From Poseidonia sp. (lineage in GTDB: Archaea > Thermoplasmatota > Poseidoniia > Poseidoniales > Poseidoniaceae), in contig JAYPCE010000004.1 in assembly GCA_038124565.1 (NCBI GenBank), positions 1 through 60,999 on the forward strand: 60,999 nucleotides of DNA, read 5' to 3'. A program made the position numbers and the translations under genes. Shown one piece after another: positions 20,747-42,875 of the stretch. The notes beneath the pieces were generated by a model. It was not told the origin of the DNA. It searched no databases and worked only from the letters and a program-made list of their open reading frames with translations. Each line of letters begins with the position of its first letter. The stretch's first letter is position 1.

Positions 20747-23700
20747 CTACCAAGCATCAACGACATTGTCAAGCAAGGCGGCATCCATGACATCGTCTGT
20801 CGCTTGATGGGTCCGAATGAGGCCCAATTTCTTGGCCATGTTGTTTGAACCACTCACCGCCCCAATACCCATTTTTTCTAAGGTCACAAAGATGGCGGGA
20901 AGCAAAATGAGAGCACTGGCAGCGGCCACCCAGAGGAGAATGAGAATCACGGTAATGAACGGTTGAATCTCTGGAATCGGGATGTTGTAGGCGGTGAACA
21001 TACCCAATGAAGTGACAACTGCTGCTTCAAACAACGACATACCTGTACCAACCGCAGCACTTCGGATCGCTTGAATCCCTCCGCCTAATTCACGGATACG
21101 GTTGGCAATGTGAATGGAAAAGTCAACCCCAACGCCAACCAAAATCGAACCAATCATCACCGTGACGAGGGACAATGGAACGTCCATGCGCCACATGACA
21201 AGCCATTGCAATGCCACCGTTGCAATCACAGGAGAAGTGGTCCAAATGGAATAACGTATGTCTTTGAACACCACGGCGAGGGTGATGAGTGTGAGGATGA
21301 TAGCGAAGCCGAGTGAGGTCCATTGGGAGCCCACAATCAACTCATTGACTTCAATAGCAGTTGCCGCAACCCCTGTCAAATCCTCTGCGGATTCGCCATA
21401 CGGTCCACTGAAGGAGGCGGCTTTCTCATTGACTGAGTCAACGCTCTTGGAAGTATCTGCAACCGGAATGAACGGCATGTCTACGTAGATAAGGGAGCGC
21501 CCGAAATCCTCACTGATGAAAATCTCACGGGTTTCCTTGGTGAGCGAAGCATAGAAGACATCGAGAAGGAAAATCTGGGTCTGCTGGGAACCAGGGAACC
21601 CGAATTCAGCCGGGTCGTTGAGCAAATCCCAGAAGGAAGCGTCGCCTGAACCGCTCTGATTAAACAAAATTTCAGCCGTTTCTTTGACATCCTCACAGGC
21701 TTCAGAACCAGCACACGGCACCAATTGCAACAATTCGTTGACTTGTTCGCCCGAGACTGTTACTTGAACACCTGAAGCTTTCATTAAGAAGACAACGGAC
21801 ACAGCCGTTGTATTTTCTACCATGTTCAAGGACGATTCAAGTTGGTCAATTTTCTTCAATAACGCAACTGGGTCATCGTTGGTTACATCGTTGTCGTTGA
21901 AATCCCCGCTCACATTGGCGTTGACCAAAATCATTCCCACTTGCCCTGCTTCAAATTCACGGCTGTATTGTTTCATCTTCACAACAGGCGATTCACCTTC
22001 AGGAGCCATACCCAAGAGGTCAATATTTTCCTCTACATTGGCTTGCCCAACGGTCGCAGAAAGTAAAATCAAGAGGGCAAACACGCCGATGACGCCTTTA
22101 TTGTATTTGACGGGAACATCAACCAAAACATCAAACGCTTTCAACGGAGGATGTTTGGGCTTCTTCAAGTCCAAAATGAGGGTAAGATTCGGCACCATAA
22201 ACATGGTGAGAATGTACACGATGACAATGCCCACTGAAAGGGCAATACCAACGGTTTGAATAGGCGCCATGGGCGTGAATACCAAGGAAATGAACCCAAT
22301 GACGGTTGTTACGGCAGAAAGAAACACTGCACGGCCTGTCGATGTAAGTGATGCGCGCATCTTTTCGCTTTTCGTACCATCTTCTTCTGCATAACGATTG
22401 GTGATGTGCAAGCCATACGATACGCCGAGTGCTAACAAAATTGGGCCGACGATAATCACTGTCATGGTGACTTCATAATTCGTGGCCCCAATGAGACCCA
22501 ATGTCCAAAACACAGCGCACAAAGTCGGCAGCCCAGCAATGACAACGACTTTGAATCCTTGAATCGGACGCATTCCTGTAATGCCTGCTTGCAGTAAATC
22601 CGAGTGAAAGACAAACAAGCCAATGGCCACCAAAACCACCGCAAGGGGGAAGATTTCCCAGAAGAGTCTAAACGAAAATTCAGTCACTGCATTGGTAATG
22701 GGCACCGGTCCTGTCAAAACCATACTCAATCCCAAGTCCTCCCAGTCGCACATCCCTTCCGATTCAATGGGGTCACCGTTTGCGTCAAACCGACAGGCGC
22801 GCTCCAATTTTGAGATAGCATCAAACACCTCTTGTGTATCTGCAATGATCTCCTTCGCAGGTCGATTTTCGGTTACTGCAATGGCCATGATGGCGCGGTC
22901 AAGCAAACCATCGGGTTGGCCGTCTTCACCTCCTTCGATATCTCTTGCGAGTTTGTTCAGCCCAGATGTGGGTTCTCCAGTTTCTTCATCGTACATTTCC
23001 CCAATCACAAGGTCAATCGTTGTTTGACTTGGGATTTCGTATGAACCACCAAAACGGTCGTCTGTTTGTTGGGCAAGCTCGTTGATGTTCTCTGCTAATT
23101 CGCGCGACGGACAATTGTCTTCAGGGTTGCTTGAGCATCCCAATTCACCGACCTCGGTGATGATTGCTTCGCGAATTCGGGGCGCACTTGAGTTCACTTC
23201 TTTCAAAACAGTTGAAAGTGAAAGAATGTAAATGACGTCGTCAGAATCGTCTGAGAGATATGGGTTGAGAATGTTTTCCACGTAGCTGATTTCTTGGAGA
23301 ATTCTCTGGTCAGTAATGTTGTATTTCGATGATTCAATGTAAACGACCATGACATTGGTTGACCAATCCTCCTCAACCTTTCCAATCAACTCGGCTACTT
23401 GGCTCCCCTCAGGCAGATAGACCTCGAGGTCACCGTTTACATTCAAGGCAGGATTCTCGGGGTCATCATCAAATTGTGTGTCATCGAGGAACCCAGATTG
23501 AGTAACAAAGTAGGCTGTCAACAGTAAAAACACCATGATGGTCGGAATCGGGAACTTTGTTATGGCCCCTGTTGCGCCGCTTTTCTGCCATTCACGCTTG
23601 AATCGTTTTGGTGCATCTAAGACAGCATCAAGTGTTTTCTTTGAATCAATCGTCTTCAATTGTCCCGACAATTGGTCACGAACCGCCTTGGTACGCCCCG

Positions 23701-23779
23701 TTAGCGCATCCAAACGACGATTTCCGACGGATTCAGCGTCCGTTTGCGGACCATATTCGTCGTCCTCGGGCATGACCAT
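20747..23779 (-). CDS. RND-superfamily (MMPL/COG1033-type) exporter
   Basis: A 1010-aa ORF with two blocks of about 6 TM helices, each preceded by a large soluble loop. It has the repeated sterol-sensing/MMPL-like motifs GVSYGLHITNRY and GVGVDFSIHIANRIRE. Confidence 0.8.
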   Translation of the reverse strand: MVMPEDDEYGPQTDAESVGNRRLDALTGRTKAVRDQLSGQLKTIDSKKTLDAVLDAPKRFKREWQKSGATGAITKFPIPTIMVFLLLTAYFVTQSGFLDDTQFDDDPENPALNVNGDLEVYLPEGSQVAELIGKVEEDWSTNVMVVYIESSKYNITDQRILQEISYVENILNPYLSDDSDDVIYILSLSTVLKEVNSSAPRIREAIITEVGELGCSSNPEDNCPSRELAENINELAQQTDDRFGGSYEIPSQTTIDLVIGEMYDEETGEPTSGLNKLARDIEGGEDGQPDGLLDRAIMAIAVTENRPAKEIIADTQEVFDAISKLERACRFDANGDPIESEGMCDWEDLGLSMVLTGPVPITNAVTEFSFRLFWEIFPLAVVLVAIGLFVFHSDLLQAGITGMRPIQGFKVVVIAGLPTLCAVFWTLGLIGATNYEVTMTVIIVGPILLALGVSYGLHITNRYAEEDGTKSEKMRASLTSTGRAVFLSAVTTVIGFISLVFTPMAPIQTVGIALSVGIVIVYILTMFMVPNLTLILDLKKPKHPPLKAFDVLVDVPVKYNKGVIGVFALLILLSATVGQANVEENIDLLGMAPEGESPVVKMKQYSREFEAGQVGMILVNANVSGDFNDNDVTNDDPVALLKKIDQLESSLNMVENTTAVSVVFLMKASGVQVTVSGEQVNELLQLVPCAGSEACEDVKETAEILFNQSGSGDASFWDLLNDPAEFGFPGSQQTQIFLLDVFYASLTKETREIFISEDFGRSLIYVDMPFIPVADTSKSVDSVNEKAASFSGPYGESAEDLTGVAATAIEVNELIVGSQWTSLGFAIILTLITLAVVFKDIRYSIWTTSPVIATVALQWLVMWRMDVPLSLVTVMIGSILVGVGVDFSIHIANRIRELGGGIQAIRSAAVGTGMSLFEAAVVTSLGMFTAYNIPIPEIQPFITVILILLWVAAASALILLPAIFVTLEKMGIGAVSGSNNMAKKLGLIRTHQATDDVMDAALLDNVVDAW

Positions 23780-26439: not shown

Positions 26440-27573
26440 TCATTCCTCCTCAACATGGAGGGTTGTTTGGCGAGAGAGCGGGACCTCCAAATGACCCAAA
26501 CGAAAACCGATGAGACGGATGTTCCTGTCCGAGTCAACATTCGTGGCAAAGAGGTGTTGTGCAAGTCGTTTGAACACCGAAGGGTCGTCCATAGCCACGG
26601 GAATACTCCGGCCTGCTGAATGGGTTTCAAAACCGGTGTACCTGATTTTGACCTCACCTAACCGACCAGAAACCCCCAGACCTATCGCACGACCCATGAC
26701 GGCGTCCACCAGGTCGGTCAACCGGTCGAGCACCACCTCATGATCGCTCCTGTCCTGCTCAAAGGTATGCTCTTTGCCGATGGATTTGCGACTTTGAAGA
26801 GGACTAACATCGCTGCTGCTTTCACCCTCCACCACCGTCATGAACCATGAGGCAAAGCGCTCACCGGCAAGACGGGAAAGCGATAATTCACCTAGTTCGT
26901 GAAGTTCGTCTGCGGTCGTGAACCCCCATTCAGCCAGTTGCTGGGCGCGTTTTGGACCTATGCCGGGAATTTCTCTCAAAGATCGCCCCTCAAAGAACGA
27001 TTTTACCTCGTCGGGCATCACACGGAAAATACCGTTGGGTTTGTTCACTTCGCTGCTCATTTTCGCGAGAATCCGAGTGGGTCCAATACCGAACGATGCC
27101 GTGAGACTCAAGTTCGCAAAAATTTCCTGCTGCAGGGATGTTGCGAGTGCAAAAGCAGCGTCCCAATCACCCTTCACACGTTCCGTGACGTCAAGATATG
27201 CCTCGTCAATGCTGGCCTTTTCAAACAAATCGGCTTCCCTGCGCAAGGACTGCATCACCTTACGACTCGCTCTGCTGTAAAGCCCCCGCGTTCCTCGAAT
27301 GTAACATGCAGGACCAAACGGTGCTGCCGGACACCTGCGCCAAGCCTCTGAAATGGGCATGGCGGAATGGATGCCGTATGTTCTCGCCTCATAATTGCAC
27401 GTTGAAACGATGCCGCGACCTCGGCCTTGCTTTGGGTCCGAACCAATGATGAGTGGCACAGATGGGTCAAAGCCATGGTGCAGTGTTTCTACGGCCGCAA
27501 AAAAAGCGTCCAAGTCACAATGGATGATGATGCGACCCTCAGCCGCGGACGGGTTCTTTTCCAGTTCACCCAC
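26440..27573 (-). CDS. dinB: Y-family DNA polymerase IV (DinB/Dpo4-like)
   Basis: Catalytic blocks are intact: IIHCDLDAFFAAVE and SIDEAYLD. Also present are STCNYEARTYGIHSAMP, the HhH motif IPGIGPKRAQQL, and a little-finger domain. The start is GTG at 27573. Confidence 0.85.
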   Translation of the reverse strand: MGELEKNPSAAEGRIIIHCDLDAFFAAVETLHHGFDPSVPLIIGSDPKQGRGRGIVSTCNYEARTYGIHSAMPISEAWRRCPAAPFGPACYIRGTRGLYSRASRKVMQSLRREADLFEKASIDEAYLDVTERVKGDWDAAFALATSLQQEIFANLSLTASFGIGPTRILAKMSSEVNKPNGIFRVMPDEVKSFFEGRSLREIPGIGPKRAQQLAEWGFTTADELHELGELSLSRLAGERFASWFMTVVEGESSSDVSPLQSRKSIGKEHTFEQDRSDHEVVLDRLTDLVDAVMGRAIGLGVSGRLGEVKIRYTGFETHSAGRSIPVAMDDPSVFKRLAQHLFATNVDSDRNIRLIGFRLGHLEVPLSRQTTLHVEEE

Positions 27574-27600
27574 ACATCATTTCCTAAGCCAAAGGTGCTT

Positions 27601-27623
27601 GAACTTGATGCATCATTCAGTTC
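27601..27623. promoter_or_regulatory. Imperfect palindrome in the dinB / imuA-like divergent intergenic region (candidate operator)
   Basis: In GAACTTGATGCATCATTCAGTTC the core TGATGCATCA is a perfect 10-bp palindrome, flanked by GAACT...AGTTC arms. It lies in the 98-bp spacer between the two divergent start codons. Confidence 0.3.
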
Positions 27624-27671
27624 AACAAAGGGGTGTAGAGAACGATTGATGACCTCCGATGGTGACCGTCC

Positions 27672-28457
27672 ATGATTGACATGACTGACATACCAAGCGG
27701 CGCAGCACGGACACATATCATCAAGCCACCTCTCCAAGAAGTGGACCTCTCGCTGGTGTCACCCCAAGCTGGACAACTCTACCATTTGTCTGGCCCCGGA
27801 CACGCTGGACGCGGCATGCGCCCCGTAGCGGAGCATTGGGTGGTTGAAGCGTTGGTCCGAGGAGAAGTGGTGCATTGGGTAGATGGCGCGTGTCGTATTG
27901 ACCCTTCGCGTCTTCTTCCTGCACTGGCTGAACGAAACGCAGACACCGATGCGTGCCTTTCCCGCCTCTACTTGAGCCGAGGATTTACATTGCATCAACT
28001 CGACCGGCAACTTGAGCGTCTTCCTCAAGAATTGGCCATCACACGTTCGCCTTTGGTGGTGATCGACGGATTGCTGGCCATGCATGGGGACGATGCCATT
28101 CGACGAATTGAATCAAGAGTCTTGTTACGACGCCATCTTCAGGTGATGCAAGACATCGCTGAACGACAGCACAGAGCAGTGGTCGTCATCACGGAATCAA
28201 CCACCAATGACTCGCATCATCAACGTTTGATTCAATGTATTCATCGTCATGCACAAAACCATCTCGTTGGTCACTGGCAGGGTTCGCGACACAAACGAAT
28301 GCTCCATCTACACCATCCACGAACCGGTTTGCGAGGCCTCTGGCGCAGCACACCAAAAAGCGAGCAGACCAATCTTGTCCTCACGTATCACCCCGCACAT
28401 CTTCAGGTATTTTCGGCCTCGGTGGGCTGTTTGCCGTTGCTTCACGAAAAACGTTGA
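27672..28457 (+). CDS. Degenerate RecA-fold protein, ImuA/RadB-like (hypothetical)
   Basis: This 261-aa ORF is the only long ORF in the interval. It has a Walker-A-like LSGPGHAGRG (K to R, S/T to G), VHWVDGACRIDPSRL, LSRLYLSR, a Walker-B-like SPLVVIDGLLAMH, and RAVVVITE. The layout resembles ImuA/RecA-core proteins. Its 3' end overlaps the convergent PolB gene by 77 nt. Confidence 0.5.
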   Translation: MIDMTDIPSGAARTHIIKPPLQEVDLSLVSPQAGQLYHLSGPGHAGRGMRPVAEHWVVEALVRGEVVHWVDGACRIDPSRLLPALAERNADTDACLSRLYLSRGFTLHQLDRQLERLPQELAITRSPLVVIDGLLAMHGDDAIRRIESRVLLRRHLQVMQDIAERQHRAVVVITESTTNDSHHQRLIQCIHRHAQNHLVGHWQGSRHKRMLHLHHPRTGLRGLWRSTPKSEQTNLVLTYHPAHLQVFSASVGCLPLLHEKR

Positions 28458-30882
28458 AGTCGTACAGTGTTGGCTGGCGTCCAACGCCACGCAAGTCTTC
28501 CTCGGTCCATCCAAAGGGCGCAAGAATCGCCCACACAGCCCGTTCGGCGAGGGTGGTGTAGTGGGTGAGACAGGCCGTGGTCGTTACAGGAACCGAAGGA
28601 AGTTCTTCGGCAAGAACGACCCTATCCAACGGCTCAGACGCAGAAACATCCACGACAACATAGCGTATTTTTCCACCAGGTGGTACATGATGTCCTTGCA
28701 GATGAGCGCGCATGAGCGCTGCGTAGGTGAGGTTTTTCACGCGGTAATTGCCCAGCGTGGATGTCACGCGTCGCGTCACGACGAGAGCGTCGAGCGGAAC
28801 TTCACGGCGTCCAAGACGCTGGCATTCTGTGCGGTACAACCGCAACACCTGTTGTTGCCCTTTCATGTCGGGAATCCCGTTGACACGACCACTTGACGCA
28901 AGGACCTGAAGGGCTTGCTCTTGAAGTGTACCAATCCAAGAGGGCGTGGAGTGTTGGCGCATTTCAATGCCTCTGACCTTGAATTCACCACCACCGTATG
29001 CCCAATACTTGGTCAGCGAACCTGTTCCGTGAACTCGACTTGGAAGAAACGCAATGAAGTCGTAATGTTGCTCCAATTCCAGCGGTATACCGATGAGCGT
29101 TGTCATGCGTTCAGCAAATGCTGCGGCATCATGCTGCTGTTGCTCACGGGTACGCTGGGCTCGGTCAAGTAACCACACACAATCAACAATGGCGTGGAGA
29201 ACATCCCATCCCGCATGTTGCGCTTCCTCAATGGTCGTGAGCAAAATGTCGCGAGACCACGCACAAATTGCCTCGTGCGCTTCGATGCGCCCAAAACGAG
29301 CATTGCGATAACCTGTGTAGCCAAAGCAGGTAACAAGCAACCATTTGAGAGCGTTTTGCCGCAAGTCAAAGGCATCACCTTTCTTCTTACGTTGACGTTT
29401 GAGTACGCTGCGACGCTCGATGATGGGAGCGACCACGCGACCCAAGAATCCATGCCGACGCCCGCAGGTATGGCTGCTGAGACCTGGTACACGCAACGCT
29501 TTCTCATGCGCCATGGGGAACAACCCGTGGCCAAATTGTGAGCGTAACCGCCGATTTCGAAAATCGGCTTCTGCATCGGACGGATGCAAAGGAACGATGC
29601 CTGTGTTGTTCGCCTCTGAAGGTGGTTGACAGCACGCACAATTCAATGTCTCCGGGGAGATATTTCGTGTCGCAATGATGCTTGGAAACAGGCTGGCAAA
29701 ATCAAGTTCGATGACCGAGGCATACACGCCTGGACGGCTGTCAAGGTACAATCCCCCCCGGTCTGCCTGCAGAAGTTCCAAGGCAGACTTGGTGTCTTCA
29801 GGACGATTTTTCTTCCATGGAACAAGGACGCCATCGTCCATGGCCACACGCATTTGTATCGCACTGATGACCGAACCCGGAGAAAGACGCGAAATGACTT
29901 GAGCAGATTGACATGAATGTTGAGCCAATTCGAACAGACCGGCGGCTCCGCCTTCTTTGACGATGAAACTGTTGCGTAAATCAAGGTGCAAACGGCCTTC
30001 CAAAAAATAGGCACCGTGACGATGCAACGTGTGTCCATACGACTGTACGGTTCGGGCTTGTGTGGACGGTGAGAGGGGAGTTGATGTTCGTCCGAGACGT
30101 ACCTCGCACCCGAGCCGTTGACCTTGTTCTACCAGCCACGGAAACAAGCGTTGGTCACCACCGTATGTCAACACAACATCGGGATCAGAGCGGTCATACA
30201 GATGCTGAAACGCCTCCAACATGGACGCAAACGAATCGAAATCCTCCCGCAAAAGAACCGTTTCTTGCACGGGATGAAGGGCCCTGAGAAAGCCTGGTTC
30301 TCGGACCGGTTTGAGACGAAACGCGTGCACGGCATCGTGCAACGAGGGAAGACCATGCGATGGAGCAAAATCAATGGCCAACTGAACCACGCGAAAAGGA
30401 GGAAACATGTCCACCTTTACGGGGGTTGTCGCCGCCATTGTACGCAGTTCATGGCCGTCCCAACGCACACGTGAAAACGGCTCGCACTGATGTTCATTCA
30501 GGAAACGCTGGGCCAAGTGCGCATCAACAGAAAAGAGCGTGTAGCGATGAAAATCTCCTCGTGCTTCGATGTGCTCGGCAAGCGCTCGTAAATGACGGAA
30601 TGGCTCAATAAAAACTTCCAGCACCTTGACCCTGTCGTCACTTTCCAAATCCAGCCGCATGGACCGAGTAGAGACCCCCTTGATGCCGAAACGTGCGGCA
30701 ATTTCGGGTTGACGCAACCAATGTGTCAAATGTCCAAGTTCACGGGTTGAAGCATGGACATGGAGACTTGCTCGCCACGGTATCTCGCAACCGTGTGCCG
30801 AGCCTTCGTCGTCAACAATCCAAACCACCATGCCTGTTTGCGAACGGTTTTCATGAAGGTCCAACAACCACCCTTCAATCAT
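28381..30882 (-). CDS. Family B DNA polymerase, divergent (exonuclease motifs degenerate; PolB2/Dpo2-like in character)
   Basis: Pol motif A is VIELDFASLFPSII and the KxY motif is SLTKYWAYGG. Motif B is degenerate (RQNALKWLLVTCFGYTGY) and motif C is VLHAIVDCVW instead of YGDTDS. Exo I is LAIDFAP (DxE becomes DxA), Exo II is TYGGDQRLFPWL (FD lost), and Exo III is QHSCQSA (Y...D lost). The ATG at 30882 (MIEGWLLDLHE) is preferred over the listed TTG at 30900. Confidence 0.8.
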   Translation of the reverse strand: MIEGWLLDLHENRSQTGMVVWIVDDEGSAHGCEIPWRASLHVHASTRELGHLTHWLRQPEIAARFGIKGVSTRSMRLDLESDDRVKVLEVFIEPFRHLRALAEHIEARGDFHRYTLFSVDAHLAQRFLNEHQCEPFSRVRWDGHELRTMAATTPVKVDMFPPFRVVQLAIDFAPSHGLPSLHDAVHAFRLKPVREPGFLRALHPVQETVLLREDFDSFASMLEAFQHLYDRSDPDVVLTYGGDQRLFPWLVEQGQRLGCEVRLGRTSTPLSPSTQARTVQSYGHTLHRHGAYFLEGRLHLDLRNSFIVKEGGAAGLFELAQHSCQSAQVISRLSPGSVISAIQMRVAMDDGVLVPWKKNRPEDTKSALELLQADRGGLYLDSRPGVYASVIELDFASLFPSIIATRNISPETLNCACCQPPSEANNTGIVPLHPSDAEADFRNRRLRSQFGHGLFPMAHEKALRVPGLSSHTCGRRHGFLGRVVAPIIERRSVLKRQRKKKGDAFDLRQNALKWLLVTCFGYTGYRNARFGRIEAHEAICAWSRDILLTTIEEAQHAGWDVLHAIVDCVWLLDRAQRTREQQQHDAAAFAERMTTLIGIPLELEQHYDFIAFLPSRVHGTGSLTKYWAYGGGEFKVRGIEMRQHSTPSWIGTLQEQALQVLASSGRVNGIPDMKGQQQVLRLYRTECQRLGRREVPLDALVVTRRVTSTLGNYRVKNLTYAALMRAHLQGHHVPPGGKIRYVVVDVSASEPLDRVVLAEELPSVPVTTTACLTHYTTLAERAVWAILAPFGWTEEDLRGVGRQPTLYDFNVFREATANSPPRPKIPEDVRGDT

Positions 30883-31144
30883 CGCAACGACCTTCTTCAA
30901 GCGCCTGCAGTCGTTGGCTGAGTTGCTCGTTACGTACCGCCAACCCCACCAACATGTTGAGCAACATCATGTGCCAGGTATCGATGGCTGGAAGCATCCC
31001 CCCGGCTGCACGACGCTGGCGAACATCGTTGAGCAACGCGTCGAAGATGGCGTGTTCTGATATCGGCAAGGCTCGCCTGTATGGAACAAGTCGTTCCAAT
31101 TCCGCTTCCACTCGTGTTCGCCAAGGAGGTACACTTCGGCCCAT
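30875..31144 (-). CDS. Small helical hypothetical protein, translationally coupled to the PolB gene
   Basis: An 89-aa ORF with an ATG start at 31144. Its TGA stop (30875-30877) overlaps the PolB ATG (30880-30882) in ATGATTGA. The sequence is Arg/Leu-rich and looks helical. No family recognised. Confidence 0.45.
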   Translation of the reverse strand: MGRSVPPWRTRVEAELERLVPYRRALPISEHAIFDALLNDVRQRRAAGGMLPAIDTWHMMLLNMLVGLAVRNEQLSQRLQALEEGRCDD

Positions 31145-31208
31145 AGCGACGAGAGATGCGAGAACATCCTCTTCCTTTTCTCAGACCCAGAAGTTGAAAG
31201 TGAAAGTG

Positions 31209-32293: not shown

Positions 32294-33448
32294 ATGGCGA
32301 CAGAGGTGCAAGAGTTGTTGTGGGGGGCCGGCATCCTTGCCCTCCCCCTGCTTCTTGCACTCCCTATGCGACTTGCTTGGCAGTTTTGGGTCGGCATCGG
32401 GCACGAAGTCTCGGAATACCGCACGATTGTGCGGCAAATCGTTGATTCCGGCCACCAAGTCGCATCGTTTTCCCAAAATTTGGACGACATCGCCCGAAAC
32501 CTCAGAATTCCACCTGCAAAGCAACGGTTGATCGAAGCAGAACTTTTGCATCCGCTTCGTCTTTCACATTTCTTGTTGCTACCGGCCCTCCTCATTCTTC
32601 CACTTTCAGCCATCATGGCACTGCCGCTCGTTCTGTTGGGGTTCCCGTTCATGTTGTTCATGGAATACTTGCTCATTCGAAAGAACCTACTGATTTGGAT
32701 ATTGAAGGGCACCGAACGCGTCATGCACTGGCAGGTGATTCACATCCCAAAACCACACCGCGGCAACCGAGATAACAGGCGCTCATTGACTGAATTTTCT
32801 CAACACATTGAACATTTCAATTACGTCCCCCAAGCGGCATTTCTCGGCCTTTTTGCGTGGCTGATTGTTCACTGGGTACTCAATCTCGATTCATGGTCGA
32901 TTGAAATTCTTGTTTCGGCCCTCCTGTACATGGTGTTGCTTTCGGTCCTCTCTGTGCTGAACACGGCTTTTGAAGCGGATTTGGTCTTTGTAGACCCTGC
33001 AAAAGGACGGCTTGTTCCGGTGAATCAATGGCTCGAAGGGGTGCTCAATCCCATCGTAGGTATCGGATTGCTCTTCCTCCTTGGAAGGAATCTGCTTGAA
33101 GAATCGAGAGCGGTGGATGGAAACCCAATCCTCTTTGCCACCGTGGTGCTAACCCTGCTTTACGGTGCTGCAATCGTAGGTATTTCCTACCGTTGGGGCT
33201 ACTCAACGTGGCGAGGCGAACGTGTGCGGCAGCACTTTGAAACGCAAGTTGTCTCCCACCTGAATCCACTTTCTTATGACTTAACACGTTCAAAAGGCCG
33301 CATTGATTTCAATGTACGAATGGGCATGGAGGAGCGCTTGACAGCGATTGAGGCAACGAGTCCTCAACAACTCTCCTTTGAAGAATTACAAAACCTTCCT
33401 TCAGTTCCAGCAGGAACCAAGGCTCCAGCGAACCCACTGAAAAAATGA
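32294..33448 (+). CDS. Hypothetical polytopic membrane protein
   Basis: A 384-aa ORF with about 7 hydrophobic helices, divergent from serA. No recognisable motif; start uncertain. Confidence 0.55.
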   Translation: MATEVQELLWGAGILALPLLLALPMRLAWQFWVGIGHEVSEYRTIVRQIVDSGHQVASFSQNLDDIARNLRIPPAKQRLIEAELLHPLRLSHFLLLPALLILPLSAIMALPLVLLGFPFMLFMEYLLIRKNLLIWILKGTERVMHWQVIHIPKPHRGNRDNRRSLTEFSQHIEHFNYVPQAAFLGLFAWLIVHWVLNLDSWSIEILVSALLYMVLLSVLSVLNTAFEADLVFVDPAKGRLVPVNQWLEGVLNPIVGIGLLFLLGRNLLEESRAVDGNPILFATVVLTLLYGAAIVGISYRWGYSTWRGERVRQHFETQVVSHLNPLSYDLTRSKGRIDFNVRMGMEERLTAIEATSPQQLSFEELQNLPSVPAGTKAPANPLKK

Positions 33449-40978: not shown

Positions 40979-41053
40979 TGGAGCCACCGGCGAGATTTGA
41001 ACTCGCGACCTCCTCATTACCAATGAGGTGCTATACCCCTAAGCCACGGTGGC
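40979..41053 (-). tRNA. tRNA-Thr (anticodon GGU), CCA encoded
   Basis: Hand-folded cloverleaf: acceptor GCCACCG/CGGTGGC; anticodon arm CCTCA-TTGGTAA-TGAGG; T arm GCGAG-TTCAAAT-CTCGC. 75 nt including the 3' CCA. Confidence 0.9.
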
Positions 41054-42788: not shown

Positions 42789-42875
42789 TGGCGCCGAGAG
42801 AGAGATTTGAACTCCCGAGGGAACGGGCCCACGCGATTTCCAGTCGCGCGCACTACCAGGCTATGCGATCTCGGC
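42789..42875 (-). tRNA. tRNA-Ser (anticodon GGA), long variable arm, CCA encoded
   Basis: Hand-folded: acceptor GCCGAGA/TCTCGGC; D arm GCAT/GTGC; anticodon arm CGCGA-CTGGAAA-TCGCG; 15-nt variable arm; T arm GGGAG-TTCAAAT-CTCTC. 87 nt. Confidence 0.9.

Follow-up and report, generated by a model that had tools for sequence, protein, structure and literature searches.

The open reading frame at positions 27672-28457 of the 60,999-nucleotide stretch of Poseidonia sp. DNA analysed here (the window) very probably encodes iRadA, which serves the PolB2 translesion mutasome as a structural subunit and not as a recombinase. To our knowledge, this mutasome is the main damage-induced mutagenesis machine of archaea. 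The finding is correct in substance and not new, since the iRadA family and its gene cluster are already in print. The three-gene cluster of PolB2, PPB2 and an 'inactivated RadA' (arCOG07763/arCOG04294/arCOG08101) was described by Makarova, Krupovic and Koonin 2014 (PMC4104785); Timinskas, Timinskas and Venclovas 2025 (PMC11791011) modelled the PolB2 mutasome and assigned the Poseidoniales operons to group 3b (PPB2-PolB2-iRadA).

The iRadA gene and its decayed ATPase core

The frame begins with ATG on the forward strand and codes for 261 amino acids; an upstream extension is blocked by an in-frame TGA at 27663-27665. The gene and its recognizable parts are:

27672-28457, forward strand: iRadA gene, a RadA/Rad51-type ATPase core alone, without N-terminal HhH or polymerisation domain
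27792-27815, forward strand: degenerate Walker A GPGHAGRG (aa 41-48), with Lys replaced by Arg47 and Ser/Thr by Gly48; aligns with GPYASGKT of RadB 2cvf
27870-27896, forward strand: beta-2 strand VHWVDGACR (aa 67-75), counterpart of (V/I)DTE in RadA/RadB
27975-27998, forward strand: signature SRGFTLHQ (aa 102-109), by alignment the equivalent of RadA ARAFNSNHQ
28053-28070, forward strand: Walker-B-like strand LVVIDG (aa 128-133) with Asp132, aligned with RadB LVVVDS
28353-28454, forward strand: disordered C-terminal tail (aa 228-261), pLDDT < 50, consensus QTxF...GxLxLxH
28365-28388, forward strand: relic PIP-like box QTNLVLTY (aa 232-239) in the tail, a sequence motif

The frame proposed in the earlier note is real, and all peptides quoted there are found in it, namely GQLYHLSGPGHAGRG (aa 34-48), VVHWVDGACRIDPSRL (aa 66-81), LSRLYLSRGFT, SPLVVIDG (Asp132) and RAVVVITE. 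BLASTP matches it to the published group-3b iRadAs MBL6742772 (51% identity, 2e-78), EHR76800 (42%, 3e-52) and MBA87393 (37%, 5e-49), and 68 homologs with E ≤ 0.001 and 41-78% identity are found in Poseidoniales (Marine Group II archaea). The median NG86 dN/dS is 0.09 for the core (84 pairs) and about 0.19 for the C-terminal tail, so that the suggested comparison across homologs points to purifying selection on both. It is extremely improbable that the frame is a chance product or a mis-annotation, with the 3' end of PolB as the sole real feature. A 77-nt overlap with a long gene would suit such an origin, as would the database names (for ten distant relatives the only name on record was 'hypothetical protein', and many members are nameless), but the GC content is just 0.54 in the iRadA region (window 0.48-0.54), the homologs extend down to 41% identity under the low dN/dS given above, the AF2 model is confident and RAD51-like, and the Pfam Rad51 match (24.6 bits) exceeds the gathering score of 22. 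A GC-rich chance open frame, the alternative that the earlier note had named, is refuted by these observations.

On the other strand within 27672-28380, said to be free of competing frames, there are two mechanically called ones, at 27721-27924 (67 aa) and 27759-28085 (108 aa). In the iRadA homologs, too, the antisense strand typically stays open over about 118 codons. Consensus scans around the frame gave no excess over shuffles, using patterns of bacterial type that are of limited value for an archaeon. Metatranscriptome contigs 95-99% like the related locus L012 span iRadA, the overlap, PolB2 and PPB2; they are unstranded and may reflect DNA carry-over.

Profile comparison and structure prediction agree on a RecA-superfamily core. 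The AF2 model (pLDDT 83.7, pTM 0.77) has a folded core at aa 20-227, with aa 1-19 and 228-261 predicted to be disordered. Its best Foldseek matches are the ATPase cores of RAD51, DMC1 and RadA (E about 4e-11), with TM values up to 0.70 for isolated RadA ATPase domains. The profile alignment begins at RadB residue 19 and covers RadB and RadA through the quoted motifs. What is present is a RadA/Rad51 core without the N-terminal oligomerisation and DNA-binding domain, preceded by 19 disordered residues. The motif order claimed for RecA, RadB and ImuA cores (P-loop, beta-2, Walker-B strand, beta-5) and the decay of the ATPase residues both stand, as does the P-loop-like segment with K changed to R and S/T to G, confirmed as GPGHAGRG; the label ImuA does not.

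The residues replaced are those of Walker A and of the catalytic Glu position, whereas Asp132 of Walker B is retained. The beta-2 strand aligns with 'VAYVDTEGGFSPERL' of RadB and 'WIDTENTFRPER' of RadA; among its invariant columns in the iRadA family (H68, W69, D71, G72, A73 and R75), Gly72-Ala73 occupies the position of the catalytic Glu. The pattern [WFY][VI]DG[GA] is common to the window iRadA and the published iRadAs of Halorubrum, Methanomassiliicoccus and Lokiarchaeota. In the signature, S102, R103, G104, F105, L107, H108 and Q109 are invariant, and SR[GA]FT.[HY]Q is found in the published iRadAs as well as in most of 109 distant representatives. D132 is conserved at 90% or more within the iRadA family; 14 of the 109 more distant relatives keep the Asp. 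The tail ends with a conserved GxLxLxH motif (aa 252-258), and C-terminal PCNA motifs of iRadA have been described (PMC11791011).

The P-loop varies within the order. GPGHAGRG occurs in the window copy and in loci L006-L008 and L011, and 26 of the 50 Poseidoniales species keep a canonical GxxxxGK[ST]. Because about half of the orthologs keep this motif together with the Walker-B Asp, the term 'inactive' may fail family-wide with respect to nucleotide binding. Judged by these residues, iRadA may still bind nucleotide in about half of the Poseidoniaceae species, the catalytic Glu being absent. The mutasome could then be regulated by nucleotide as Pol V Mut is by RecA-ATP, a property that the species of the window would have lost. 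The retention of the P-loop in about half of the Poseidoniales species is a new detail.

RadB (TIGR02237) is the best NCBIfam match (1.2e-5), RadB 2cvf is the best match of the iRadA profile among PDB sequences, RadB likewise has no N-terminal domain, and GKS and the Walker-B Asp are present in many orthologs. It is nevertheless quite unlikely that the gene encodes a functional RadA paralog, similar to RadB or aRadC, that takes part in homologous recombination and lies next to PolB2 by accident. The RadB model scores 25.3 bits, far short of its cut-off of 172.4, an invariant Gly-Ala takes the place of the catalytic Glu, and Walker A of the window copy has neither Lys nor Ser. The gene is moreover found beside PolB2 and PPB2, tail-to-tail with the PPB2-PolB2 unit, in 51 of 51 loci, even where other neighbours are lost, and its product shows direct similarity to iRadAs that PolB2 operons encode in other phyla. 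Among published iRadAs it matches Methanomassiliicoccus NLT37499 (BLASTP 1e-9; 63 bits with the family profile) and Halorubrum WP_173230217 (5e-9; 48.8 bits).

Membership in the ImuA family, whose RecA-like proteins assist ImuB and DnaE2 in a mutasome of bacterial type, is very improbable. A degenerate RecA-superfamily core does adjoin the gene of an error-prone polymerase, and the functional analogy is real, in that a TLS polymerase is served by a recombinase paralog that has decayed. However, no ImuA family was found in Pfam-A and NCBIfam at E ≤ 1, the best sequence and fold matches are Rad51, RadA and RadB and not RecA or ImuA, and the host belongs to the Archaea. The gene has PolB2 and PPB2 as partners, with no imuB/dnaE2 cassette, and in contrast to ImuB the adjoining Y-family polymerase retains its catalytic motifs. 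ImuA was rejected on the missing model match and the wrong partners. The idea of a partnership with a translesion polymerase is right in spirit. The family to which the protein belongs is iRadA, with 51% identity (E 2e-78) to MBL6742772.

PolB2, PPB2 and the convergent overlap

The features on the opposite side of the junction are:

28381-28457, shared by both strands: 3'-3' overlap of iRadA and PolB2, 77 nt, comprising the last 25 iRadA codons and the stop
28381-30900, reverse strand: PolB2, 839 aa from TTG 30900 (Pfam DNA_pol_B 7.5e-18; NCBIfam NF004418 1.3e-111)
28456-28476, reverse strand: PolB2 PIP-like box QPTLYDF (aa 809-815), ending where the iRadA overlap begins and followed by a poorly conserved 24-aa tail
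29173-29196, reverse strand: PolB2 motif C HAIVDCVW, with IVD for canonical DxD, invariant in 40 loci
29680-29703, reverse strand: PolB2 motif A DFASLFPS, a sequence motif
29752-29838, reverse strand: PolB2 loop (about aa 355-383) with VPW...DRGG (aa 360-383), matching by sequence the beta-alpha iRadA-binding motif, then the D(K/R) motif
30875-31144, reverse strand: PPB2 (arCOG07300), 89 aa, assigned by sequence similarity, with N-terminal arm MGRSVPPWR (Arg3, Arg9)

PolB2 has 57% identity to MBL6742771 and significant matches to the PolB2 proteins of Methanomassiliicoccus, Acidianus and A. fulgidus. It carries the features of this family: IVD in motif C (the counterpart in S. islandicus PolB2 is 401-IID-403), DRGG at aa 380-383, and 'AIDFA', with the Glu missing, in the Exo I region; the Pfam exonuclease model reaches 18.9 bits and stays under its cut-off. 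The pattern ...VPW/F.K...D(K/R)GG of the loop also occurs in the PolB2 sequences of the supplement of PMC11791011, whose section 3.3.2 describes the role of the iRadA-binding motif. All 40 PolB2 sequences have the box Q/R..[LIVM]..F, after which 2-26 aa remain. The real start of PolB2 is probably ATG 30882 (MIEGWLLD, as in published PolB2), which would overlap the PPB2 stop by 8 nt. PPB2, with the expected size of about 90 aa and an arm of the MGRT type described in PMC11791011, has 61% identity (E 3.5e-37) to MBL6742770 and matches PPB2 of Methanomassiliicoccus, Lokiarchaeota, Halorubrum and Acidianus. The arm reads MGRSVPxWR in all 47 PPB2 loci.

The overlap with the convergent PolB gene, which the earlier note had taken as a possible sign of a wrong C-terminus or annotation, is confirmed at 77 nt. 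An annotation error was rejected, because the convergent overlap is conserved in all 38 loci in which both gene ends can be placed (20-167 nt, mode 62) and the iRadA tail is under selection (omega about 0.19). The overlap length modulo 3 is 2 in 30 of these loci, conservation is 0.55 in the last 20 aa of iRadA versus 0.40 in the last 20 aa of PolB2, and within the overlap the third codon positions of the iRadA frame vary most.

That the overlap is regulatory, the antisense 3' ends coupling or limiting the expression of iRadA and PolB2 beyond the effect of a drifting PolB2 stop, is unlikely. Its presence at every measurable locus and its preferred phase would be consistent with such a role, and a metatranscriptome contig crosses the junction in a relative, but these contigs are unstranded, and the variable length and poorly conserved PolB2 tail are what neutral run-on predicts. 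The overlap itself showed no terminator-like or structured element. The likelier reading is that iRadA keeps a constrained tail and that the PolB2 frame simply continues beyond its PIP-like box, as a variable stretch, to the next stop codon.

The Y-family neighbour and candidate promoter boxes

Upstream of iRadA and of PPB2-PolB2 the window contains:

26440-27573, reverse strand: Y-family DNA polymerase (Pol IV/Dpo4 type; Pfam IMS 2.4e-35 and IMS_C), divergent from iRadA
27594-27634, no strand assigned: conserved non-coding block in the divergent promoter region of PolY and iRadA, from an alignment of 46 intergenic regions
31184-31207, reverse strand: conserved non-coding block upstream of PPB2-PolB2, ACTTTCACTTTC (31196-31207) followed by GGGTC (31184-31188), from a 47-locus alignment

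The Y-family polymerase scores 265 bits with NF002677 (cut-off 256), and its catalytic motifs DLDAFFA and SIDEA are intact. It adjoins iRadA in about 45 of 51 loci, and IMS adjoins 46 of 95 group-3b operons (Table S1, PMC11791011).

The block between PolY and iRadA consists of GGTGCTTGAACTTGATG, an inverted repeat (TTGAACT-N13-AGTTCAA, 27599-27625) and then GGGGT (27630-27634). The repeat occurs once in the window, where 0.02 copies are expected. The box upstream of PPB2-PolB2 is exact in 32 and relaxed in 40 of the 47 loci, begins at -63 from the ATG in 24, and has a single exact copy in the window. A near-match at 23214-23225 lies inside a long coding frame and was taken as chance. The box may be read as a tandem, that is, as two copies of ANTTTC, to which the damage regulator Orc1-2 binds in Sulfolobus. 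ANTTTC as such is absent from the PolY/iRadA intergenic region, where only related AGTTCAA boxes are found. From the alignments, the PolY, iRadA and PPB2-PolB2 units may share a promoter module TTCAsTT(T)CA-N5-8-GGGKY. Such a module would amount to a regulon for DNA damage in the marine Group II archaea, which are uncultured. The conserved non-coding boxes apparently common to the three promoters are a new detail. The combined reading, in which the Poseidoniaceae iRadA represents an intermediate stage of RadA ATPase decay and the TLS promoter module marks a damage regulon, is tentative, and we consider it possible though doubtful.

The putative mutasome and known systems

iRadA would be a RadA/Rad51-derived protein, cut down to its ATPase core and serving as a structural subunit of the PolB2 mutasome. 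According to published AlphaFold-Multimer models, PolB2 would bind iRadA because its loop mimics the RadA polymerisation motif: one iRadA is predicted to bind one PolB2, the loop (...GVLVPWKK...ADRGG) docking on the iRadA core. One member of a PPB2 trimer would reach with its N-terminal arm (MGRS...) into the PolB2/iRadA cleft near the DNA, with a predicted PolB2:iRadA:PPB2 stoichiometry of 1:1:3, and the C-terminal PIP-like box would tether the complex to PCNA, QPTLYDF of PolB2 in this case, with iRadA retaining only the relic QTNLVLTY. The steps of assembly derive from these models, which include two Poseidoniales complexes with scores of 0.83-0.87 (heteropentamers EHR76801/EHR76800/EHR76802, ranking score 0.866, and MBL6742771/2/0, 0.833; PMC11791011). 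The complex is an AlphaFold prediction, for which a 2026 review still calls for verification. By analogy with Sulfolobus experiments, PolB2 would extend mispaired or lesion-opposed primer ends once an inserter has acted, in agreement with its description as an extender polymerase (PMC8764526); the obvious inserter would be the adjoining Y-family polymerase. iRadA is transcribed separately from PPB2-PolB2 and in the opposite direction; co-expression of the two units is presumed.

Poseidoniales carry a compact translesion-synthesis island, in which a Y-family polymerase, the presumed inserter, is combined with a B-family extender and its two accessory subunits. For these abundant ocean archaea, iRadA is the correct annotation of a gene whose database copies, as far as examined, were either unnamed or labelled 'hypothetical protein'. 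Neither the partly intact P-loop nor the shared promoter boxes alter the picture published in 2014 and 2025, to which they are small additions.

The window iRadA and the group-3b iRadAs of PMC11791011 are alike in family, in the RadA core without N-terminal domain, in the MGR(S/T) arm of PPB2, in I-x-D for DxD in PolB2, and in the neighbours IMS, 2-Hacid_dh_C and tRNA-synt_1 (Table S1). The window copy differs in species and in its P-loop, GPGHAGRG. The three genes are mostly co-oriented in the published operons, whereas iRadA of the window is convergent with PolB2 and overlaps it. PMC11791011 generally describes the ATPase residues as missing; the Poseidoniales branch is less decayed, because about half of its members keep GxxxxGK[ST] and the Walker-B Asp.

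Archaeal RadB (TIGR02237; PDB 2cvf/2cvh) and the RadA core (PDB 4a6p, 1pzn) share fold and motif order with iRadA, and the N-terminal HhH domain is absent in RadB and iRadA alike. iRadA differs in scoring far below the family cut-offs, in Gly-Ala for the catalytic Glu, in the degenerate Walker A of the window copy, and in a different and tightly conserved gene context. E. coli Pol V Mut (UmuD'2C-RecA-ATP) and ImuA-ImuB-DnaE2 resemble the PolB2 system in that a damage-tolerance polymerase is assisted by one subunit with a recombinase fold and by a third subunit that is small and oligomeric, and the parallel between PolB2 and Pol V is drawn explicitly in PMC11791011. In contrast to both, the system is archaeal, PolB2 belongs to family B and not to Y or C, and iRadA belongs to the Rad51/RadA branch and not to RecA; compared with Pol V Mut, iRadA is a dedicated and degenerate subunit and not the active recombinase of the cell.

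Identity of the gene at 27672-28457

The reading frame at 27672-28457 is identified by its neighbours, which are listed together with further features of the window.

20747-23779 (-): 1010-aa multi-pass membrane protein, upstream of the tRNA synthetase
26440-27573 (-): Y-family DNA polymerase (PolY), divergent from iRadA
27672-28457 (+): iRadA, 261 codons, ATG start
28381-30900 (-): B-family polymerase PolB2, 839 codons, downstream of iRadA and convergent
30875-31144 (-): PPB2, 89 codons, directly upstream of PolB2 on the same strand, beginning MGRSVPPWR
32294-33448 (+): 384-aa membrane protein, downstream of the dehydrogenase, no Pfam match
40979-41053: tRNA-Thr
42789-42875: tRNA-Ser

The two membrane proteins appear unrelated to iRadA. 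A conserved archaeal three-gene cluster of PolB2, the helical protein arCOG07300 (~90 aa) and an inactivated RadA was described by Makarova, Krupovic and Koonin in 2014, when PolB2 was itself considered an 'inactivated' B-family polymerase (PMC4104785). The accessory proteins were named PPB2 and iRadA by Timinskas, Timinskas and Venclovas in 2025, and Poseidoniales operons form their group '3b (PPB2-PolB2-iRadA)', with sequences printed in the supplement (PMC11791011). The product of 27672-28457 matches iRadA MBL6742772 from Poseidonia sp. (51% identity, E 2e-78), EHR76800 (42%) and MBA87393 (37%), as well as the iRadAs of Methanomassiliicoccus (E 1e-9; family profile 63 bits) and Halorubrum (E 5e-9; family profile 48.8 bits). 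The 89-aa product of 30875-31144 is 61% identical to PPB2 MBL6742770, and the polymerase is 57% identical to PolB2 MBL6742771. The gene is therefore iRadA of the PolB2 mutasome, in a group 3b operon. An ImuA-like label, proposed in the earlier note, names the wrong family because the partners are PolB2 and PPB2, the similarity is to published iRadAs, and no ImuA model in Pfam or NCBIfam matches.

The window order is tRNA synthetase (+), Y-family polymerase (-), iRadA (+), PolB2 (-), PPB2 (-) and 2-hydroxyacid dehydrogenase (-). It is retained in about 45 of 51 related loci, in agreement with published neighbours: IMS, 2-Hacid_dh_C and tRNA-synt_1 adjoin about half of 95 group-3b operons (Table S1, PMC11791011). 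The linkage to PolB2 and PPB2 is conserved, with partner motifs present in both.

An in-frame TGA (27663-27665) bounds the ORF on its 5' side, and all peptides quoted in the earlier note occur in the translation. Among 5.8 billion proteins searched, 68 relatives were found (41-78% identity), the few named ones coming from Candidatus Poseidonia or Thermoplasmatota, and a scan of species-representative genomes gave 51 iRadA loci, nearly all labelled Poseidoniales or with a related archaeal name (two carry bacterial labels). Across 84 ortholog pairs with unsaturated dS, the median NG86 dN/dS is 0.09 in the core (residues 20-227) and 0.19 in the tail (residues 228-261). Pfam Rad51 matches residues 67-181 with 24.6 bits, against a gathering score of 22. 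The suggestion of a GC-rich chance open frame is refuted by the homologs, the purifying dN/dS, the RecA-type fold predicted by AlphaFold2 and the Pfam match above the gathering score; nor is the ORF region GC-rich, its GC content being ~0.54 versus 0.48-0.54 across the window. Nor is the opposite strand free of ORFs, as had been claimed: mechanical antisense ORFs of 67 and 108 codons lie inside the interval, and antisense open stretches of ~118 codons are typical among the homologs.

The N-terminus M-I-x-M (ATGATxxxxATG, 27672-27683) is nearly invariant in the family, despite residues 1-19 being predicted as disordered; its conservation may reflect a translation-start signal instead of protein function. 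The iRadA family and group 3b are already known, including models of two Poseidoniales complexes. The remaining interest lies in side observations and in the database copies, all of which, among those seen, are either unnamed or annotated as hypothetical.

Fold and nucleotide-binding motifs

iRadA belongs to the RecA superfamily, in the Rad51/RadA/RadB branch, and the RecA-like core read from the sequence in the earlier note is borne out by Pfam Rad51, structure prediction and profile alignments. The AlphaFold2 model (input of 58 sequences; mean pLDDT 83.7, pTM 0.77) has a confident alpha/beta core at residues 20-227 and disordered N- and C-terminal ends. Its top Foldseek PDB matches are the ATPase cores of RAD51, DMC1 and RadA (E ~4e-11); for isolated RadA ATPase domains, TM reaches 0.70. 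The family profile matches the PDB sequences of RadB (2cvf, 2.3e-4) and RadA (4a6p, 2.8e-4), and in these alignments GPGRAGKS corresponds to GPYASGKT, VHWVDGACRIDPSRL to VAYVDTEGGFSPERL, and LVVVDG to LVVVDS. The catalytic Glu is lost.

The P-loop of the window copy is degenerate, reading GPGHAGRG (27792-27815) as in four relatives. A canonical GxxxxGK[ST] (GPGRAGKS or GPGRSGKS) occurs in 26 of 50 Poseidoniales species, others having GRS, GSS, GAS or further variants; in the divergent loci L043-L051 GxxxxG is absent altogether. The Walker-B Asp is nearly invariant among Poseidoniales iRadAs. In contrast, among 109 more distant representatives retrieved by profile from 1.84 billion proteins, GK[ST] is found in only one and the Asp in 14, and so the Poseidoniales branch, judged by these motifs, comprises the least decayed iRadAs. 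The motifs [WFY][VI]DG[GA] and SR[GA]FT.[HY]Q are common to published iRadAs and nearly all 109 distant relatives. Some Poseidoniales species may possibly bind nucleotide without hydrolysis. This non-uniform decay is slightly new relative to the published description.

PolB2 and the convergent overlap

The hallmark motifs of PolB2 are invariant in 40 related loci. In the window, HAIVDCVW places IVD at the expected DxD site (IID in S. islandicus PolB2, PMC11791011), the GVLVPWKK...ADRGG loop is present, and the Exo I region lacks Glu. The listed ORF starts at TTG 30900; published PolB2 proteins begin MxIEGWLLD, and therefore the real start is probably ATG 30882 (MIEGWLLD). From this start the gene would overlap PPB2, stop codon included, by 8 nt, as is typical of coupled genes in an operon.

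iRadA and PolB2, whose ORF ends at 28381, share 77 nt, which the earlier note took as a possible sign of a wrong C-terminus or annotation. An overlap of 20-167 nt (commonest 62 nt) exists in all 38 loci in which both stop codons could be placed, with the same relative phase in 30, and the iRadA tail is the more conserved. Within the 62-nt class, mean identity is 0.55 for the iRadA end versus 0.40 for the PolB2 tail, and the most variable sites are third codon positions of the iRadA frame. A GxLxLxH motif is conserved in the last iRadA residues. Every PolB2 ortholog carries a Q-x-x-L-x-x-F box (QPTLYDF in the window, aa 809-815), followed by 2-26 residues with little conservation; the window overlap starts exactly where this box ends. 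We infer that the iRadA C-terminus is functional and that the PolB2 frame merely continues beyond its PCNA-type box until it meets a stop codon. Save for the PolB2 start, re-annotation is unnecessary.

The iRadA C-termini of L043-L051 carry PIP-like boxes (ELTLKHF, PLTLNDF) that are close to canonical, with only the Gln missing. PolB2 of these lineages also retains QxxLxxF, so that both subunits may carry a clamp motif, an arrangement reported as rare (PMC11791011).

Upstream elements and proposed function

The divergent PolY/iRadA region comprises 98 nt (27574-27671). Its strongly conserved non-coding span (27594-27634) consists of GGTGYTTSAACTTGATG, an inverted repeat and GGGGT, and these blocks are common to species whose iRadA proteins are only ~50-60% identical. 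The repeat TTGAACT-N13-AGTTCAA (27599-27625) occurs only once in the window (expected count 0.02). In 28 loci its right arm ends 46-47 nt 5' of the iRadA ATG, and the distance between the left block and the PolY start is 20 nt, likewise in 28 loci; the geometry therefore places an AGTTCAA box upstream of each divergent gene. The span probably serves both genes as an operator or promoter element.

Upstream of PPB2-PolB2, ACTTTCACTTTC is followed by GGGTC (31184-31207, -). Of 47 loci, 32 have the box exactly and 40 in relaxed form. It usually starts at -63 from the PPB2 ATG and is retained in one related locus (L047) despite a different upstream neighbour. It resembles the iRadA-proximal box (shared pattern TTCAsTT(T)CA, N5-8, GGGKY), which hints at a common regulon of the translesion genes. 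The PPB2 box amounts to the hexamer ANTTTC in two tandem copies; in Sulfolobus, Orc1-2 binds this hexamer as a damage-response element (PMC6061795). A match to a hexamer carries little weight, and we regard the resemblance as a lead only. These promoter blocks are among the slightly new details of the locus.

In the published models, PolB2, iRadA and three PPB2 copies form a heteropentamer (PolB2:iRadA:PPB2x3): a PolB2 loop before the conserved D(K/R) motif binds iRadA like a RadA-RadA subunit contact, the 'MGRT' N-terminal arm of PPB2 (Arg3, Arg9) is inserted between PolB2 and iRadA, and a PCNA-binding box lies at the C-terminus of iRadA or of PolB2 (PMC11791011). By analogy, iRadA would be a non-catalytic scaffold held by the PolB2 VPW loop, the PPB2 arm would lock the interface near the primer-template, and PCNA would be contacted through the PolB2 C-terminal box, QTNLVLTY in iRadA (QTxF in the family consensus) being apparently no more than a relic. 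In the literature, iRadA and PPB2 are so far without published experiments. Sulfolobus PolB2 is damage-inducible and extends mispaired or lesion-opposed termini (PMC8764526; PMC6061795), and the window PolB2 may likewise be a damage-inducible extender. The adjacent Y-family polymerase, with intact catalytic motifs (DLDAFFA, SIDEA), would be the natural inserter. At their C-termini its orthologs share SRQTTLFEEE, in which a motif of QxxLF type, resembling a clamp-binding site, precedes an acidic tail. In the window copy this end is RQTTLHVEEE (26440-26470, -), with the Phe replaced. A related locus is matched at 95-99% identity by metatranscriptome contigs that span iRadA, the overlap, PolB2 and PPB2; these contigs are unstranded and may include DNA carry-over.

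The comparison with ImuA is a good functional analogy, and the earlier note had the fold and type of role right. The ImuA cassette is analogous in function and differs in its partners, which are ImuB and DnaE2 there, PolB2 and PPB2 here.
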